DNA from: an uncultured Dehalococcoidales bacterium
GTDB lineage: Bacteria; Chloroflexota; Dehalococcoidia; GIF9; AB-539-J10
Assembly: GCA_964586515.1 (NCBI GenBank)
Contig: CAZPGJ010000001.1
Span: forward strand, 158,390 to 222,389
Direction of reading: 5' to 3'
DNA length: 64,000 bases
Shown here: positions 21,806 through 26,907 of the stretch, in pieces
Position numbering within the stretch: the stretch's first letter is position 1
Layout: the number at the start of each line of letters is the position of its first letter
Made by a program: the position numbers and the translations under genes
The notes under the pieces: model-generated
Databases searched by the model: none
Told to the model about the DNA's origin: nothing
The model's input: only the letters and a program-made list of their open reading frames with translations

Positions 21806-22924
21806 ATGTCAATGTCTTACCGTCGCATAGTGGCTAAATTCGGCACAAGCCTCCTTACCTCGGGCACTGACCACCTCGACTTGAAAGTTATGTCAAGTTT
21901 GGTGGAGCAGCTAGCCCGACTCCATGGCCAGGGGAAGGAGATAGTCATAATCTCTTCCGGAGCTATCGTCTCAGGAAGACAGAAGCTCAAGAAAGTTCCA
22001 GAACGCAAGAACACTCCTTTCAAACAGGTACTGGCTTCGGTGGGCCAAAGCCACCTCATGTATACCTATGAACAACTTTTCAGCCAGTATGATATAACCG
22101 TGGCCCAGGCATTGCTCACCAAGGGAGACCTCTCCGACCGGAGTGGCTATCTTAATGCCCGCAATACCCTGCTGGCCCTTATCGAGCTGGGCATAATCTG
22201 CATTGTCAATGAGAATGACGTTGTCGCCATTGATGAGATTGAAGAGCTCAAATTCGGGGATAATGATAACCTTTCCGCCATGGTGGCTAATCTGGTTGAC
22301 GCTGACATTTTAATCATGCTCACCGACATCGGCGGGTTATACACTGCCGACCCGCATTACAATCCCCAAGCTCAACTTATTCGCCGGGTGGACAAGATTG
22401 ACGCCAAAATTGAACGCATGGCTAGCGATACTGCCAGCCACCAGGGGATCGGCGGCATGGCGACTAAGGTTGAGGCAGCCAAGTTAGCTACTTGTTCAGG
22501 GGTAAACGTAGTCATCGTCAATGGACGAGAACCTGACATACTGGTGAGGATTAGCCAGGAAGAAGACATAGGCACTTTCTTTCCTGCGCCGGTAAATAAG
22601 ATGGAGAGCAAAAAGAGGTGGATGCTCAGCGGGCTGGCTTCCAAGGGCAAGGTCACGGTGGACAAAGGCGCTGTCTTAGCCCTCAAGGAGCACAATAAGA
22701 GCCTGCTCCCTGCGGGGATTATGAAAGCTGAGGGGAAGTTCCAGCGCGGCGATATTGTGGATATACTCGACGAGAAGGGCAAACACATCGGCTGTGGTAT
22801 TTCCAACTATAGCTCTTCTGATTTAGCTATCATCGGAGGGAAGCACTCTGATAAAATCCCCAGTCTCCTCGGCTACGATTATGGCGACGAAGTGGTTCAC
22901 AGGAACAATATGGTGATATTATGA
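21806..22924 (+). CDS. proB: Glutamate 5-kinase with C-terminal PUA domain
   Basis: ORF 21701..22924; conserved start MSMSYRRIVAKFGTSLLT at 21806. Amino-acid kinase fold plus PUA domain. Confidence 0.85.
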   Translation: MSMSYRRIVAKFGTSLLTSGTDHLDLKVMSSLVEQLARLHGQGKEIVIISSGAIVSGRQKLKKVPERKNTPFKQVLASVGQSHLMYTYEQLFSQYDITVAQALLTKGDLSDRSGYLNARNTLLALIELGIICIVNENDVVAIDEIEELKFGDNDNLSAMVANLVDADILIMLTDIGGLYTADPHYNPQAQLIRRVDKIDAKIERMASDTASHQGIGGMATKVEAAKLATCSGVNVVIVNGREPDILVRISQEEDIGTFFPAPVNKMESKKRWMLSGLASKGKVTVDKGAVLALKEHNKSLLPAGIMKAEGKFQRGDIVDILDEKGKHIGCGISNYSSSDLAIIGGKHSDKIPSLLGYDYGDEVVHRNNMVIL

Positions 22925-22957
22925 ATAGCTTTGTTGAGAGTTAGATAAGCAAAGGAA

Positions 22958-23218
22958 ATGCCAAGGTACACTCGAGCTCCTGCTTTAAGTGGCAAGCAAT
23001 TAATCAGACTATTACGGAAAGATGAGTGGATACTCAAAGGACGAACCAGGCATGGTGTGGCATTGGCAAAGCATTTTGGAGACCGCACCAAAGTTACAGT
23101 AATACCGGATACCAACGCATCACTCGATGATGGCACACTAGCCGCAATATTAGGTGTCAAACAGACAGGTATCGGCAAGAAGGGCTTACTCGATTTACTT
23201 AATAAGTTTGGATTATAG
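22958..23218 (+). CDS. hicA: HicA-family (YcfA-like) mRNA-interferase toxin
   Basis: 86 aa; the C-terminal pattern VTVIPDTNASLDDGTLAAILGVKQTGI matches HicA (..vP.H....l..GTl..Ilkqagl). Confidence 0.55.
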   Translation: MPRYTRAPALSGKQLIRLLRKDEWILKGRTRHGVALAKHFGDRTKVTVIPDTNASLDDGTLAAILGVKQTGIGKKGLLDLLNKFGL

Positions 23219-23220
23219 CA

Positions 23221-23553
23221 TCATGCAGCACTGGCTTTGGAGAGCCGCTGCACATGCGGTTCGACAAAAGTACTTGTTCTGGGTGATACGCAAACTGTAA
23301 TATTCTTCCTGGGTCTAGTACGATGAAATTCTATATTATTCTCCCTGAAAAACCGTTGCCGTTCTCCCACATCCTCAAGAGTGTTTAGATGAAGCAATAC
23401 AGCTTCCTTAATCCTTTTGTCTGCTTCTGGTAGAGAGCGACCGAAGGTTGCTGTACCAAGCTCTTTGCAATATGCAGTCCACCGCCTACCGACTCTGCGG
23501 AATTCGAGCGTCAAAACTACATATCCTGGAACCCCCACAATTCCCTCCTTCAT
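23221..23553 (-). CDS. hicB: HicB-family antitoxin (N-terminal RNase-H-like/UPF0150 domain); convergent with hicA
   Basis: GYVVLTLEFRRVGRRWTAYCKELGTATFGRSLPEADKRIKEAVLLHL matches the HicB N-domain pattern. Confidence 0.55.
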   Translation of the reverse strand: MKEGIVGVPGYVVLTLEFRRVGRRWTAYCKELGTATFGRSLPEADKRIKEAVLLHLNTLEDVGERQRFFRENNIEFHRTRPRKNITVCVSPRTSTFVEPHVQRLSKASAA

Positions 23554-24057
23554 TGTTTATTCAGGCAATTAAGACCCTTGCGTAGCAATCTGTACATCAA
23601 TATAATAGCATTTGTCAATATTTACGGCAAATTATTACTTGTCTTTAAGGGGTAGTTGCAGAATGATATATAAAAATAGCTCCCGGTGGTAGGACCCCAC
23701 GCCTGTACAGACGCTGCCATCTTCAGCAGATGACCAACCATTCCCCAGGAGCTTTTCTTACTACTATCAAAATTATAGTAAAATGTTATAGTATTGTCAA
23801 TATTTGATTGGCATTTGCAACGAGGTGGGGTTATGGATAAATTGAAAACCAATGTTTTGTATTATGGCTACAAGGTGATTCACGGGAACACCATGGTGTT
23901 TATCGTGAACAGTATGAAAACAAGTTTAAGGAGTATAAGTGAATAGTCATCTCATAGAAATCCTTGAGGACGAAGAACTCAAAGCTAGAATACAGAGGAA
24001 ATTGCCCTACTTATTTAACATTGCTGAGCTAGAAAGCTCCCGAGCAGGAAAAATTGG

Positions 24058-24570
24058 ATGCAGGTGGGCTCGCTTAGGGAAAACGTTATAATAGCTCTAC
24101 TTATATATAAATTCGGAGAACAAAACGTAGAAACCGAGATTCCCATTACCGAGCCAGAAGTTGATGTCAGATTATTTGGTCAACCCGTGTCTATCAAGAC
24201 AATTACAGGTAAAAGGTTTAGTGGAGTTAAGATTATATGGACAGTTGATGCTCAGAAAGCACGGCAATTTCGACAGAGCTACTATCCTCGATGTGATACT
24301 TTATTCGTGCAGGTTAATTGGGGTGGTAAGGGCGGACTTTACTACTTACCATTAGAGGTTCAAACAAAGGTATTTAATGCAATAGGCAGAGCAGCGTATA
24401 TTAAACTTCCTAAGCCAGGGACAAATCCGAGAGGCGTGGAAATCACTAACGAGGCGTTAGAGGCTGTAGTTACCGATAAAGAGTCCAAAGCTATTGAGAT
24501 ACGTTGGCAAAGAACAGAAATAGACTATGATCCATACCAGAGATGGGTTGACCACTGGAGGGAGGAATGA
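24058..24570 (+). CDS. Hypothetical protein, candidate small type II restriction endonuclease; possibly frame-disrupted at the 5' end
   Basis: 170-aa ORF overlapping the downstream methyltransferase start by 4 nt (ATGA). A further ~40-codon open frame (VNSHLIEILEDEELKARIQRKLPYLFNIAELESSRAGKIG) runs into its start in another frame. No confidently recognisable catalytic motif. Confidence 0.35.
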   Translation: MQVGSLRENVIIALLIYKFGEQNVETEIPITEPEVDVRLFGQPVSIKTITGKRFSGVKIIWTVDAQKARQFRQSYYPRCDTLFVQVNWGGKGGLYYLPLEVQTKVFNAIGRAAYIKLPKPGTNPRGVEITNEALEAVVTDKESKAIEIRWQRTEIDYDPYQRWVDHWREE

Positions 24571-25595
24571 AGATGAAAAGAGGGACTAAGACAAGTTCAT
24601 TTGGTTCGCCAGGGCGCATAAACCACGATTCCACTCGCTTCTACGCCAGCAGACTCTATGAAAGTCTGCCTAAAGAAGAAAAAGGCGCATATGTAGAAAA
24701 TCCTATTCCTCCCGAATTCCTTGATAAAGTATTCTGTAAATCAAGCGAAAAGATGGCGGAATTACCTGACAATAGTGTTCACATAATGGTAACTTCTCCA
24801 CCCTACAACGTAGGCAAACAGTATGATGAGGATTTGACGCTCGAAGGATACAAAGAGTTTCTAAAAAGGGTATGGCAAGAAGTCTACAGAGTGCTTGTGC
24901 CCGGTGGCAGAGCTTGTATAAATATCGCCAACCTCGGGAGAAAACCATATATTCCACTCCACGCTTTTGTCGTTGAAGATATGCTTGAGTTAGGCTTTCT
25001 TATGCGAGGAGAGATTATCTGGAACAAGGCTTCAAGCTCTAGCCCCTCCATGGCTTGGGGAAGCTGGCTTTCTGCGGCTAACCCAACACTGAGAGATATT
25101 CACGAATATATATTAGTTTTTTCTAAAGGAACTTTTGCTCGAAAGAAACAGCCGAATAGAAATAGCACTATATCTAGAGAAGAATTTCTTGAATTAACCA
25201 AGAGTGTGTGGACATTCCCTGCAGAGCAGGCAAAGAGTATCGGGCATCCCGCGCCTTTCCCCGTGGAGTTACCATATAGGCTCATCCAACTCTATACTTA
25301 CGAGGGAGATGTTGTCTTGGACCCCTTTATGGGAAGCGGGCAAGCAGCTATAGCCGCGATAAAAACGAGACGACACTATATAGGCTATGATATAAATGAG
25401 GAATATGTTAAGCTGGCAGAGAGACGAATTAGAAGATTTAGCTATGTCCAAGATGTTCCTGCAATGTTTGATTTCATAGTCAAAGAGAACAGAGCAGACA
25501 TAGCTATAGAGGAAGAGTCAGAAGGCGAAAAACAGGGGAAGGCGAACTATGAAATCAGCCGTAAAAGAGCTGGAAGAGAAGGGAAAGGCAGCTAA
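24567..25595 (+). CDS. DNA methyltransferase, beta-class N4-cytosine/N6-adenine family (TSPPY motif IV preceding DPFMGSGQAA motif I); likely m4C
   Basis: Motif order IV then I with SPPY and FxGxG, typical of the PF01555 N4/N6 methyltransferases. Confidence 0.8.
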   Translation: MKMKRGTKTSSFGSPGRINHDSTRFYASRLYESLPKEEKGAYVENPIPPEFLDKVFCKSSEKMAELPDNSVHIMVTSPPYNVGKQYDEDLTLEGYKEFLKRVWQEVYRVLVPGGRACINIANLGRKPYIPLHAFVVEDMLELGFLMRGEIIWNKASSSSPSMAWGSWLSAANPTLRDIHEYILVFSKGTFARKKQPNRNSTISREEFLELTKSVWTFPAEQAKSIGHPAPFPVELPYRLIQLYTYEGDVVLDPFMGSGQAAIAAIKTRRHYIGYDINEEYVKLAERRIRRFSYVQDVPAMFDFIVKENRADIAIEEESEGEKQGKANYEISRKRAGREGKGS

Positions 25596-26907
25596 GGCAG
25601 CTTCGAGAAAGCTGGCGTTCCTTTCTACGGAAGTTAAGAATAAGGCTTTGGTCAATATCGCTGAGGCTCTTATCGCTAGAAAGGACGAAATCTTAGCTGC
25701 CAACAAGATTGATTACGAGGAGGCGAAGGCTTCAGGGATGAATGAAGCCATGCTGGACAGGCTTATGCTGTCGCCATCTCGCCTGGAAGGCATAGCCCAG
25801 GATACAAGAACAGTGGCGGCGCTGCCTGACCCGGTAGGCGAGGTGTTCGAGATGCGGACCTTGCCCAATGGTTTACAGATAAGCAAGAGGCGAGTCCCCC
25901 TGGGAGTCATTGGTGCGATATATGAGAGCCGCCCCAATGTCACCATAGACATATCGAGCCTGTGCCTTAAATCAGGCAACGCCGTCATCCTCCGTGGTGG
26001 CAAGGAAACCATAAATTCGAACAAGGCCTTAGCCAGGGTAGCTCAAGAAGCCTGTGACCAGGCCGGCGTGCCCCAGGGAGCCATCCAGCTTATCGAGTCC
26101 ACAGAACGGACTTTAGTCAATCACATGCTCAAGATGAAGGGAATAATTGACTTGATGATTCCCCGCGGCGGCGCTGGTTTGATAAAGCTTGTCTCGGAGA
26201 ATGCCGCTATGCCGGTAATTACCGGCGGCATCGGTGTCTGCCATACCTATGTGGACAAGAGTGCCGACGTGAACAAAGCGGTTGCCATCGCCTATAATGC
26301 CAAAGTCCAGCGCCCTACCGTGTGCAATGCTCTCGATTGCATTCTGGTCCATAATCAGATTGCTCAAGCTTACCTGCCGGCTATCGCCAAAGAGTGGGCC
26401 AAGGCCGGCGTGGAAATGCACTGCGACAAGCGAGCCTTGGCTATACTTAAGCAATGTCATTGCGAGCGACCTGCCCGCCTGCTCGCCGTACAACTTCGGC
26501 AGGCGAGCCAAGGCTTGGCAGGCGGGAGCGAAGCAACCTCCCCACCCTTAAAGCTAGTCCCGGCCACAGATGAGGACTGGGGGAAGGAATATCTATCCTT
26601 GAAAGCGGCTATTAAAGTGCTTGACTCTCTGGACGAAGCTCTGGAGCACATTGAGAAATATGGCTCGGGGCACTCCGAAGCTATCGTTACCGAAGACCAT
26701 TCGGCAGCAATGCGCTTCCTCAACGAAGTGGATGCCGCCTGTGTTTATGCCAATGCCAGCACTCGGTTCACCGACGGGGGGCAGTTTGGATTAGGCGCTG
26801 AGATAGGCATAAGCACGCAGAAATTTCACGCCCGCGGTCCCATGGCATTGAAAGAGCTAACCAGTTACAAGTGGATTATCGTGGGCAGCGGGCAAGTTCG
26901 GCCTTAG
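25549..26907 (+). CDS. proA: Gamma-glutamyl phosphate reductase with an in-frame ~85-bp repeat insertion
   Basis: Aldehyde-dehydrogenase-fold ProA motifs throughout. Residues CERPARLLAVQLRQASQGLAGGSEATS are encoded by the repeat at 26456-26540. Confidence 0.85.
   Translation: MKSAVKELEEKGKAAKAASRKLAFLSTEVKNKALVNIAEALIARKDEILAANKIDYEEAKASGMNEAMLDRLMLSPSRLEGIAQDTRTVAALPDPVGEVFEMRTLPNGLQISKRRVPLGVIGAIYESRPNVTIDISSLCLKSGNAVILRGGKETINSNKALARVAQEACDQAGVPQGAIQLIESTERTLVNHMLKMKGIIDLMIPRGGAGLIKLVSENAAMPVITGGIGVCHTYVDKSADVNKAVAIAYNAKVQRPTVCNALDCILVHNQIAQAYLPAIAKEWAKAGVEMHCDKRALAILKQCHCERPARLLAVQLRQASQGLAGGSEATSPPLKLVPATDEDWGKEYLSLKAAIKVLDSLDEALEHIEKYGSGHSEAIVTEDHSAAMRFLNEVDAACVYANASTRFTDGGQFGLGAEIGISTQKFHARGPMALKELTSYKWIIVGSGQVRP
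26456..26540 (+). repeat. Full-length copy of the ~85-bp structured repeat, in frame in proA (a different reading frame from the pyrC/pyrK copies)
   Basis: Two substitutions (GTACAACTTCGG, GCAACCTC) relative to the consensus. Confidence 0.85.

Follow-up and report, generated by a model that had tools for sequence, protein, structure and literature searches.

We analyzed a 64,000-nucleotide (nt) stretch of DNA from an uncultured Dehalococcoidia bacterium (the window, in whose numbering all coordinates are given), in which the biosynthetic genes proB and proA are separated by a block carrying a HicA/HicB-like gene pair, a predicted small RNA gene, and a restriction-modification (R-M) operon. 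This block, from 22930 to 25548, is a real accessory insertion at the proB/proA junction. Taken as a whole, the reading that we favor, in which the insert is real, its site a hotspot, and its content a mosaic of three modules, is likely to be correct. All components are of kinds already described (the ThaI family, beta-class methyltransferases, HicA/HicB, an Rfam motif, and core-flanked hotspots). Less ordinary are the position of the hotspot inside a two-gene biosynthetic operon of Dehalococcoidia, a convergent HicB-like partner without a DNA-binding domain, an orphan DUF3800-VII RNA persisting with an intact promoter, and the recurrence of a DUF3800-RNA module at one junction across divergent hosts.

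The boundaries of the insert were set by comparison with the closest relative, a Dehalococcoidia metagenome-assembled genome (L004; L-numbers such as L001, L004, and L110 label the loci from relatives and metagenomes that were compared with the window). ProB and ProA of L004 are 94 and 92% identical to those of the window, and its proB and proA lie 30 nt apart. By blastn, window positions 22801 to 22929 correspond to L004 8996 to 9124 and positions 25549 to 25678 to L004 9150 to 9279; since homology ends at 22929 and restarts at 25549, the insert spans 22930 to 25548, where it takes the place of 25 nt of the L004 proB-proA spacer. The proA start, ATGAAATCAGCC, aligns with the proA starts of empty-site relatives. 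The G+C content of the insert (0.426) is the lowest among same-sized windows in the 64 kb (mean, 0.484; standard deviation, 0.019), and the G+C content at third codon positions (GC3) of its four genes is 0.37 to 0.41 versus 0.60 in proB and proA. A six-frame list of open reading frames (ORFs) reproduced every ORF named in an earlier reading made from the letters of this DNA without database searches (here, the sequence-only reading), at the same coordinates. That reading had proposed that an accessory block separates proB from proA and had looked to an empty site in related genomes and to composition for confirmation: both flanking genes were confirmed, the nearest relatives have an empty site (spacers of 19 to 34 nt in L004, L006, L007, and L009 to L013), and the insert is foreign to its flanks in both G+C and GC3.

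Module boundaries and the recombination scar

The insert is a mosaic of three modules that are found independently elsewhere and are joined at a scar (Table 1). Module 1 comprises a HicA-like gene tail to tail with a HicB-like gene, module 2 a DUF3800-VII RNA with its own sigma-70 consensus promoter and its usual DUF3800 partner missing, and module 3 a ThaI-type operon of a restriction endonuclease gene (R), probably broken, followed by a methyltransferase gene (M). The scar lies between the RNA promoter and R. Here, the sequence ATGGATAAATTGAAAACCAATGTTTTGTATTATGG matches the 5' end of the gene for a 488-amino-acid (aa) methyltransferase-Mrr fusion (MTase-2), which is intact at the corresponding position in L008, L014, L021, L026, L027, L034, and L044 and contains N6_N4_Mtase and Mrr_cat domains. 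The MTase-2 relic continues in frame into a relic of the proB 3' end, the join lying at the microhomology TATGGC(GAC). Homology to an L014-type block (hicA, HicB-like gene, RNA, and MTase-2) runs over 22930 to 23868 at 94% identity, homology to an L033-type block (proB, R, M, and proA) runs over 23863 to 25694 at 87% identity, and the two overlap in TATGGC only. MTase-2 (LYYGD) and proB (DYGDE) share ATTATGGCGAC by chance, and modules 2 and 3 are joined, via the 12 codons of MTase-2 and the 45 nt of relic proB, at an 11-nt microhomology.

The same scar is present in L001, L002, L097, and L110 and is therefore older than the exchange between DUF3800 and the Hic pair on the left side of the RNA. 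L110 carries the same complete mosaic (87.5% identity, R intact), so the mosaic is not an assembly chimera. Other duplicated proB ends occur in the clade: about 62 nt after a 99-aa membrane ORF in L027 and L041, and copies of about 110 to 150 nt that flank a 2.3-kb insert in L108 and L122. The sequence-only reading had described a defense/addiction island inserted into a biosynthetic operon; the accessory nature of the insert stands, whereas the idea of one island arriving in one insertion does not. ORF calling alone would miss the frameshifted nuclease gene, the small RNA gene, and the recombination scar.

A separate scar was observed on the proA side of the junction. In L118 (3900 to 7097), a duplicated proA 5' end and a fragment of R (residues 144 to 209) lie between MTase-2 and the full proA; this is another recombination scar at the hotspot.

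Table 1. Features of the proB-proA region, in order of position
Feature	Coordinates	Strand	Evidence and remarks
proB (glutamate 5-kinase)	21806..22924	+	TIGR01027, 441 bits; AA_kinase and PUA domains; left flank
Accessory insert, 2,619 nt	22930..25548		blastn versus L004; lowest G+C in window
HicA-like toxin gene, 86 aa (predicted)	22958..23218	+	PF07927, homologues, AlphaFold fold
HicB-like gene, 105 aa (110 aa from ATG 23553)	23221..23538	-	Fold, homologues; convergent with hicA
HicB-like promoter region (predicted)	23602..23630	-	Scan: TTGCCG-17-TATTAT with TG extension; holds left box
DUF3800-VII small RNA gene (Rfam RF02967), orphan (predicted)	23670..23756	-	48.5 bits versus gathering score 36.2; full model, positions 1 to 90
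Small RNA promoter TTGACA-17-TATAAT (predicted)	23772..23800	-	12/12 consensus match; about 15 nt upstream of RNA
MTase-2 relic, first 12 codons (MDKLKTNVLYYG)	23833..23868	+	Matches 5' end of intact 488-aa gene
Degenerate second copy of last 45 nt of proB	23863..23908	+	82% to window 22878-22915
ThaI-family type II restriction endonuclease gene (R), frameshifted	23939..24570	+	PF15514; 1-nt deletion at 24057/24058
170-aa ORF, 3' part of R	24058..24570	+	PF15514, 275 bits, profile positions 34 to 203 only
Beta-class SPPY DNA methyltransferase gene (M), 342 aa, intact	24567..25595	+	PF01555, 167 bits; PADLOC MTase_II PDLC03350, 465 bits
proA (glutamate-5-semialdehyde dehydrogenase)	25549..26907	+	NF001221, 613 bits; right flank; start inside methyltransferase gene

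The proB-proA junction in relatives

A ProB scan with one genome per species yielded 80 loci, all from uncultured Dehalococcoidia or Chloroflexota, and occupancy was counted at the 63 loci where both gene ends were visible, with a spacer of at most 60 nt scored as empty. By this measure, 30 sites were empty and 33 were occupied with varied content, with spacers of 61 to 300 nt at 7 of the occupied sites, 301 to 1,000 nt at 15, and more than 1 kb at 11; empty sites were also seen in many distant relatives. The occupants include a ThaI-type R-M system, MTase-2, two DUF3800 families, the HicA/HicB-like pair, and several small ORFs without a family match. Because the occupied sites hold different content, the junction is a hotspot and not the site of a single insertion event. 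The R-M operon lies directly 3' of proB in L003 and L033. The cassettes are better conserved than their flanks: DUF3800 is 85 to 87% identical where ProB is 57 to 67% identical, and R of L003 is 91% identical where ProB is 75% identical. We conclude that the proB/proA junction is a recombination hotspot for small defense-type cassettes in this clade.

Core-flanked defense hotspots have been described in Escherichia coli (PMC10121019) and Pseudomonas aeruginosa (PMC10250203). The site reported here resembles them in being fixed between core genes, in being empty or variously filled, and in having no obvious mobile-element backbone. It differs in that the host is a small-genome Chloroflexota lineage and the site interrupts a biosynthetic operon of two genes, in the very small size of its cassettes (0.2 to 3 kb), which must permit proA expression, and in its junctions, which carry duplicated proB ends of varying length.

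Several further ORFs were observed in the gap. A 78-aa ORF without a Pfam match directly follows proB, ahead of hicA or other cassettes, in L008 (2352 to 2588), L111 (1996 to 2229), L019, L026, L027, L029, and L034; it persists as a remnant in L014 and L110 and is wholly lost from the window. More distant relatives (ProB 64 to 68% identical; L055, L062, L065, L066, L071, L075, and L078 to L082) have a conserved ORF of about 90 to 100 aa, present once or twice and also without a Pfam match; it is a different and apparently stable resident of this junction. In L040 (10859 to 11617) and L044 (9127 to 9879), the gap is occupied by a second DUF3800 family that is divergent (PF12686; E = 8e-13); no Rfam RNA family scored above threshold in a scan of L044.

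Content and expression of the three modules

The 170-aa ORF upstream of M belongs to the ThaI family of nucleases, and the concern that it might match a non-nuclease family was not borne out. It is not a complete gene, however, as the sequence-only reading had assumed: a 1-nt deletion splits it from 40 upstream codons that lie in another frame and begin at GTG 23939. Adding one base near 24057 gives a 210-aa product that covers PF15514 positions 2 to 203 of 203 (328 bits). A homologue search of 5.8 billion proteins returned 3,948 relatives of R, the best of which are all exactly 210 aa long, with up to 96% identity at 100% coverage; the window R is 92 to 96% identical to the best intact homologues. 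In the DNA alignment, the window has TTGG-ATGCAGG, with one A missing at 24057/58, opposite TTGGAATGCAGG in seven homologues; the window letters at this site are TTGGATGCAGG, and the intact-frame form has GGAATG. The GTG start and an AAGGAG ribosome-binding site are conserved. When repaired, R is 59.8% identical to R.ThaI (3NDH) over 209 aa without gaps and keeps the ThaI residues Glu54, Asp82, and Lys93 as E48, D76, and K87 and the intercalating Met47 as M41, whose codon is the ATG that opens the 170-aa ORF. Decay of R is recurrent at this locus (L022 has another frameshift, only 38 codons remain in L018, and L038 retains M without R). R has probably been inactivated by the deletion, and the encoded nuclease is probably not active.

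M is intact and carries the motifs TSPPY (near residue 76) and DPFMGSG (near residue 253, within DPFMGSGQAA), so that motif IV precedes motif I. Its nearest solved structures are 2zie and the N4-cytosine methyltransferases 8s9m and 8s9n. R and M overlap by ATGA, and the last 47 nt of M overlap proA. The earlier description of a 342-aa beta-class methyltransferase, an ATGA overlap, and an overlap of about 45 nt with proA was accurate in all of these respects; its type II R-M system holds for the family and the intact M and fails for a working R, which is here a probable pseudogene. The ThaI cleavage site is CG/CG, and an N4-cytosine methyltransferase protects the ThaI host (PMC3025569). Because the predicted target lacks adenine, the ThaI partner is of the N4 type, and N4-cytosine enzymes are among the best structural matches, M would produce N4-methylcytosine (m4C), and the predicted specificity of the system is CGCG with N4-cytosine methylation. 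M is probably still active, and with R broken and M intact the locus would now amount to a solitary methyltransferase, illustrating stepwise R-M decay toward a predicted solitary m4C enzyme. Relative to the ThaI system of Thermoplasma acidophilum (3NDH; PF15514), the window system is alike in R sequence, in catalytic and intercalating residues, and in having an amino-methyltransferase partner; unlike it, it has a bacterial host (Dehalococcoidia), a frameshifted R, an operon within proBA, and an M that overlaps the proA start.

CGCG is underrepresented in the window, with an observed-to-expected ratio (O/E) of 0.56, the third lowest of 256 tetramers; in relatives, the ratio is 0.60 at R-M loci and 0.70 at empty-site loci. 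Other tetramers are also avoided in the window. GATC is the lowest of the 256 (53 observed versus 221 expected; O/E, 0.24), and GGCC (0.53) and TGCA (0.57) are low as well. Avoidance of these tetramers suggests that the lineage has long been exposed to other restriction systems.

Module 2 matches the only Rfam family that scored above its gathering score anywhere in the window, DUF3800-VII. Its structure was tested for covariation on 34 distinct homologues with the Rfam structure, 500 shuffles, and slid controls: 98.5% of cells were paired and 7 pairs were compensatory, a result reached by none of the 500 shuffles, and slid controls gave 41 to 61% pairing. Three invariant U-G pairs of the RNA would be A-C mismatches on the opposite strand. 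Pairing, covariation, and the U-G pairs argue for a structured RNA gene transcribed from the minus strand, and as such we predict 23670 to 23756. Every context examined retains TTGACA and a TATAAT-like -10 element. With its orientation to proB unchanged, the RNA also scored above threshold in L001, L002, L008, L014, L015, and L016, and scanning metagenomes with the exact RNA pattern gave 36 more loci. In at least 22 of these 36, as well as in L001, L002, and L016, a 245-aa DUF3800 gene ends at the RNA 3' end, tail to tail. The RNA stands alone in L015, L121, and L123, where the sequence to its left is a DUF3800 deletion remnant, and no DUF3800 gene was found in the insert or in the whole 64-kb window. 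Depending on the locus, therefore, the RNA is found alone, with DUF3800, or with the Hic pair, and it keeps its promoter and pairing after DUF3800 has been deleted or exchanged for the Hic pair.

The function of the DUF3800 RNA motif, described by Weinberg et al. in 2017 (PMC5737381), is unknown, and DUF3800 has been modeled as an RNase H-like fold (PMC7736814, PMC10910872). The window RNA agrees with the described DUF3800-VII motif (RF02967, PMC5737381) in its whole-model match above the gathering score and in its covariation, and the relatives have the tail-to-tail DUF3800 gene that the family name implies; unlike the typical case, the window RNA lacks a DUF3800 gene and lies upstream of a HicB-like gene. 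Homology of the DUF3800-RNA module between contexts stops right after the -35 element of the RNA, with no shared terminal repeats. That the DUF3800 gene and the RNA form a self-contained two-part module of about 1 kb, which spreads horizontally to the same junction among Dehalococcoidia hosts whose ProB proteins differ by 35 to 40% and leaves an RNA that persists without its partner, seems improbable to us; if so, the RNA might act in its own right (for instance, in antitoxin-like or antisense regulation, or together with a DUF3800 protein encoded elsewhere), or the RNA-protein pair might aid its own site-directed mobility.

The gap that holds the RNA had been described as a 500-bp AT-rich noncoding stretch with duplicated boxes. 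The boxes are real, but the stretch is about 385 nt long and is not noncoding, since it contains the structured small RNA gene (as predicted here), two minus-strand promoters, and the recombination scar. The window contains exactly two copies of the box TTGTCAATATTT, one at 23612 and one at 23794, against about 0.34 occurrences expected even with one mismatch. The right box (23794 to 23805) corresponds, in reverse complement, to the -35 element of the RNA and the bases just upstream; the left box (23612 to 23623; reverse complement, AAATATTGACAA) is conserved together with its flanks upstream of the HicB-like homologue in L084 and L085, outside the proB-proA context. We therefore do not regard the boxes as cassette ends or as copies of one operator: the right one is the RNA -35 element, the left one travels with the HicB-like promoter, and nothing was found in support of a regulator shared by the two.

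Two other accounts of the RNA were set aside. It is not a leader or partner of the HicB-like gene, as the Hic pair occurs without the RNA in L084 to L089, where no DUF3800-VII match was found, and the RNA occurs without the Hic pair elsewhere. A phage origin was dropped in that the RNA pattern had no exact match in a viral contig collection, the only viral scan made. The DUF3800 gene and DUF3800-VII RNA were also observed away from proB-proA, in L099 (2169 to 3100), L102 (5227 to 6150), and L113 (6691 to 7600), adjoining PIN-domain-like genes and a methylthioadenosine-phosphorylase-like gene.

For the two small proteins of module 1, AlphaFold models (AF2) were compared with PDB structures by Foldseek. 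The 86-aa protein, which had been called HicA-like from its sequence, is supported as such by both family and fold. It has 87 homologues, most of which carry a precomputed PF07927 hit and the JGI name "HicA-like mRNA interferase"; its family profile retrieved HicA 4c26 and 6g26 first among PDB entries (E = 0.04 to 0.05); and its model, with a predicted local distance difference test (pLDDT) score of 87, best matched HicA3 4p78_C and HicA 6g26_E/F (probability, 0.94 to 0.95; target template modeling score, 0.73). The model has the alpha-beta3-alpha fold of HicA, which resembles a double-stranded RNA-binding domain, and His32 is invariant among the homologues.

The HicB-like gene had been placed at 23221 to 23553 on the opposite strand, 2 nt from hicA; the strand and the 2-nt gap between the stop codons hold, but the start needs revision. 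Nearly all of its 540 homologues (JGI name, "HicB family") are 105 aa long and an AAGGAGG ribosome-binding site lies upstream of GTG 23538, so this GTG, and not ATG 23553, is most likely the start. The protein had no Pfam hit (HicB_lk_antitox only at E = 0.26). Its model (pLDDT, 81) has as its top Foldseek match the HicB N-domain 6g1c_V (probability, 1.00; root mean square deviation, 1.4 Å over 54 columns), followed by 6g1n, 2yzt, 3kwr, and 3k6q (HicB N-domain, UPF0150, and antitoxin structures), and in the profile search HicB chains were the top three PDB matches (E = 0.05 to 0.2). Residues 72 to 110 of the model form one strand plus coil, with no match to a ribbon-helix-helix (RHH) or helix-turn-helix (HTH) DNA-binding domain. 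The name HicB would suit the probable N-terminal fold but not a DNA-binding domain or an operonic layout.

The hicA and HicB-like genes are adjacent and co-occur on many contigs, and their convergent layout is kept in L008, L014, L084, L085, L110, and L111; in L084 and L085 the pair lies in a genomic context unrelated to proB-proA, flanked in L084 by genes for a D-Tyr deacylase and Fur. Compared with the HicAB type II toxin-antitoxins of Burkholderia pseudomallei (6g26) and Yersinia pestis (HicA3B3, 4p78), the window pair is alike in the HicA fold with its invariant His, in the probable HicB N-terminal fold of the 105-aa protein, and in gene adjacency. Unlike those systems, its genes are convergent and do not form a hicA-hicB operon, its HicB-like protein lacks a C-terminal RHH or HTH domain, and both proteins score below Pfam thresholds. 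From sequence and models, we interpret the pair as a putative variant of HicAB whose two genes would be transcribed separately and convergently.

Judging from the layout, proB and hicA would be transcribed together on the plus strand, and the HicB-like gene and the RNA on the minus strand from separate promoters, that of the HicB-like gene probably being its own. R, M, and proA lie on the plus strand, and proA is probably transcribed through the R-M genes and perhaps translationally coupled to them. No terminator-like site was found in 22850 to 24100, and the one hint of a plus-strand promoter for R-M-proA was a weak extended -10 element, TGTTATAGT, noted by eye near 23783 to 23791. Because M runs past the proA start, read-through of the cassette is probably needed for proA expression, and imprecise deletion of the cassette would thereby be penalized.

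Competing explanations and the variant series

The mosaic could in principle have been built by a site-specific recombinase acting in trans on an integrative element or cassette array, with an attachment site (att) in the proB 3' end and the duplicated end as the att repeat. A second proB 3' end is indeed present in the window and in L001, L002, L097, L110, L027, L041, L108, and L122, and the same DUF3800-RNA cassette recurs at the junction in hosts with only 57 to 67% ProB identity. However, the duplications measure 45, about 62, and about 110 to 150 nt and start at different proB positions, and the window junction interrupts another gene's coding sequence where a microhomology happens to occur. 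The DUF3800-RNA module lacks common terminal repeats between contexts, no fixed att or attC was found (junction repeats vary in length and position), and the examined ORFs of the gaps, to which this search was confined, included no recombinase or transposase gene. We rejected the duplicated proB end itself as an att duplication, because its left arm is the MTase-2 5' end at the microhomology and because lengths differ elsewhere. The recombinase explanation is accordingly unlikely, and we do not think that a dedicated integrase is involved: variable repeat lengths, a junction in coding sequence, and the lack of a gap recombinase speak against a fixed att and favor flank-anchored exchange. We infer that cassettes are gained or swapped by recombination with DNA of related genomes, anchored in the conserved proB and proA flanks, and that the exchange would be closed by illegitimate joins or by single-crossover integration of circles carrying a proB 3' end. 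Less probable still, indeed very unlikely, is an ancestral arrangement from which the empty sites of relatives arose by secondary deletion. It would fit the presence of R-M genes between proB and proA in several relatives with similar cassette and flank divergence (in L039 to L041, R is 73 to 79%, ProB 73 to 76%, and ProA 81% identical) and the scar common to the window, L001/L002, L097, and L110, which is not very recent. Against it, empty sites dominate among close and distant relatives (30/63), the insert composition is sharply unlike that of both flanks, cassette identity is decoupled from host identity in L003 and at the DUF3800 loci, and the scar records the later join of two once-separate arrangements.

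A third possibility, unlikely but the least so of the three, is that the R-M system is still fully functional, either because the deletion is a sequencing or assembly error or because a truncated nuclease made from ATG 24058 is active. Single-base errors are common in uncultured genomes. The frame is open downstream to the normal stop, E48, D76, K87, and M41 are kept, the protein is very close to its best intact homologues (92 to 96% identity), and AGGA lies upstream of ATG 24058. Nevertheless, the deletion falls in a two-base AA run and not in a long homopolymer; the 40 lost residues belong to the Pfam profile, are present in all of the best (210-aa) homologues, and are 55% identical to ThaI; and R has decayed repeatedly at this locus (L022, L018, and L038). 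A number of observations count against the account that we prefer. The R frame has no other defect and all catalytic residues are retained, and ATG 24058 sits 8 nt after AGGA, so a truncated protein might be made. CGCG avoidance was discarded as a sign of R-M activity, since relatives that lack the system are similarly depleted. The promoter scan yielded no plus-strand candidate for R-M-proA. The 86-aa protein matches the full PF07927 (HicA_toxin) profile at 25.8 bits, short of the cut-off of 27, and Foldseek E-values for both small proteins are weak (0.1 to 0.5). Finally, flank homology explains poorly how the DUF3800-RNA module reached the same junction in hosts with 57 to 67% identical ProB.

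Small-genome Dehalococcoidia appear to hold a variable defense/addiction locus in an essential biosynthetic operon. If proA must be read through any insert, then only compact, co-oriented cassettes survive, and this read-through layout may also stabilize the cassettes. The loci form a natural variant series, namely, empty, RNA only, DUF3800 plus RNA, and Hic pair plus RNA, each with or without either of two R-M types, and this series could serve to probe the role of the DUF3800 RNA motifs.

Length variation was also observed within proA. ProA of the window (452 aa) has a 28-aa insertion (CERPARLLAVQLRQASQGLAGGSEATS...) at about residues 303 to 330 (window 26455 to 26540); the protein has a 424-aa form in L005, L013, L016, and L037 and intermediate lengths in L004, L006, and L009, so this segment is length-variable within the clade.

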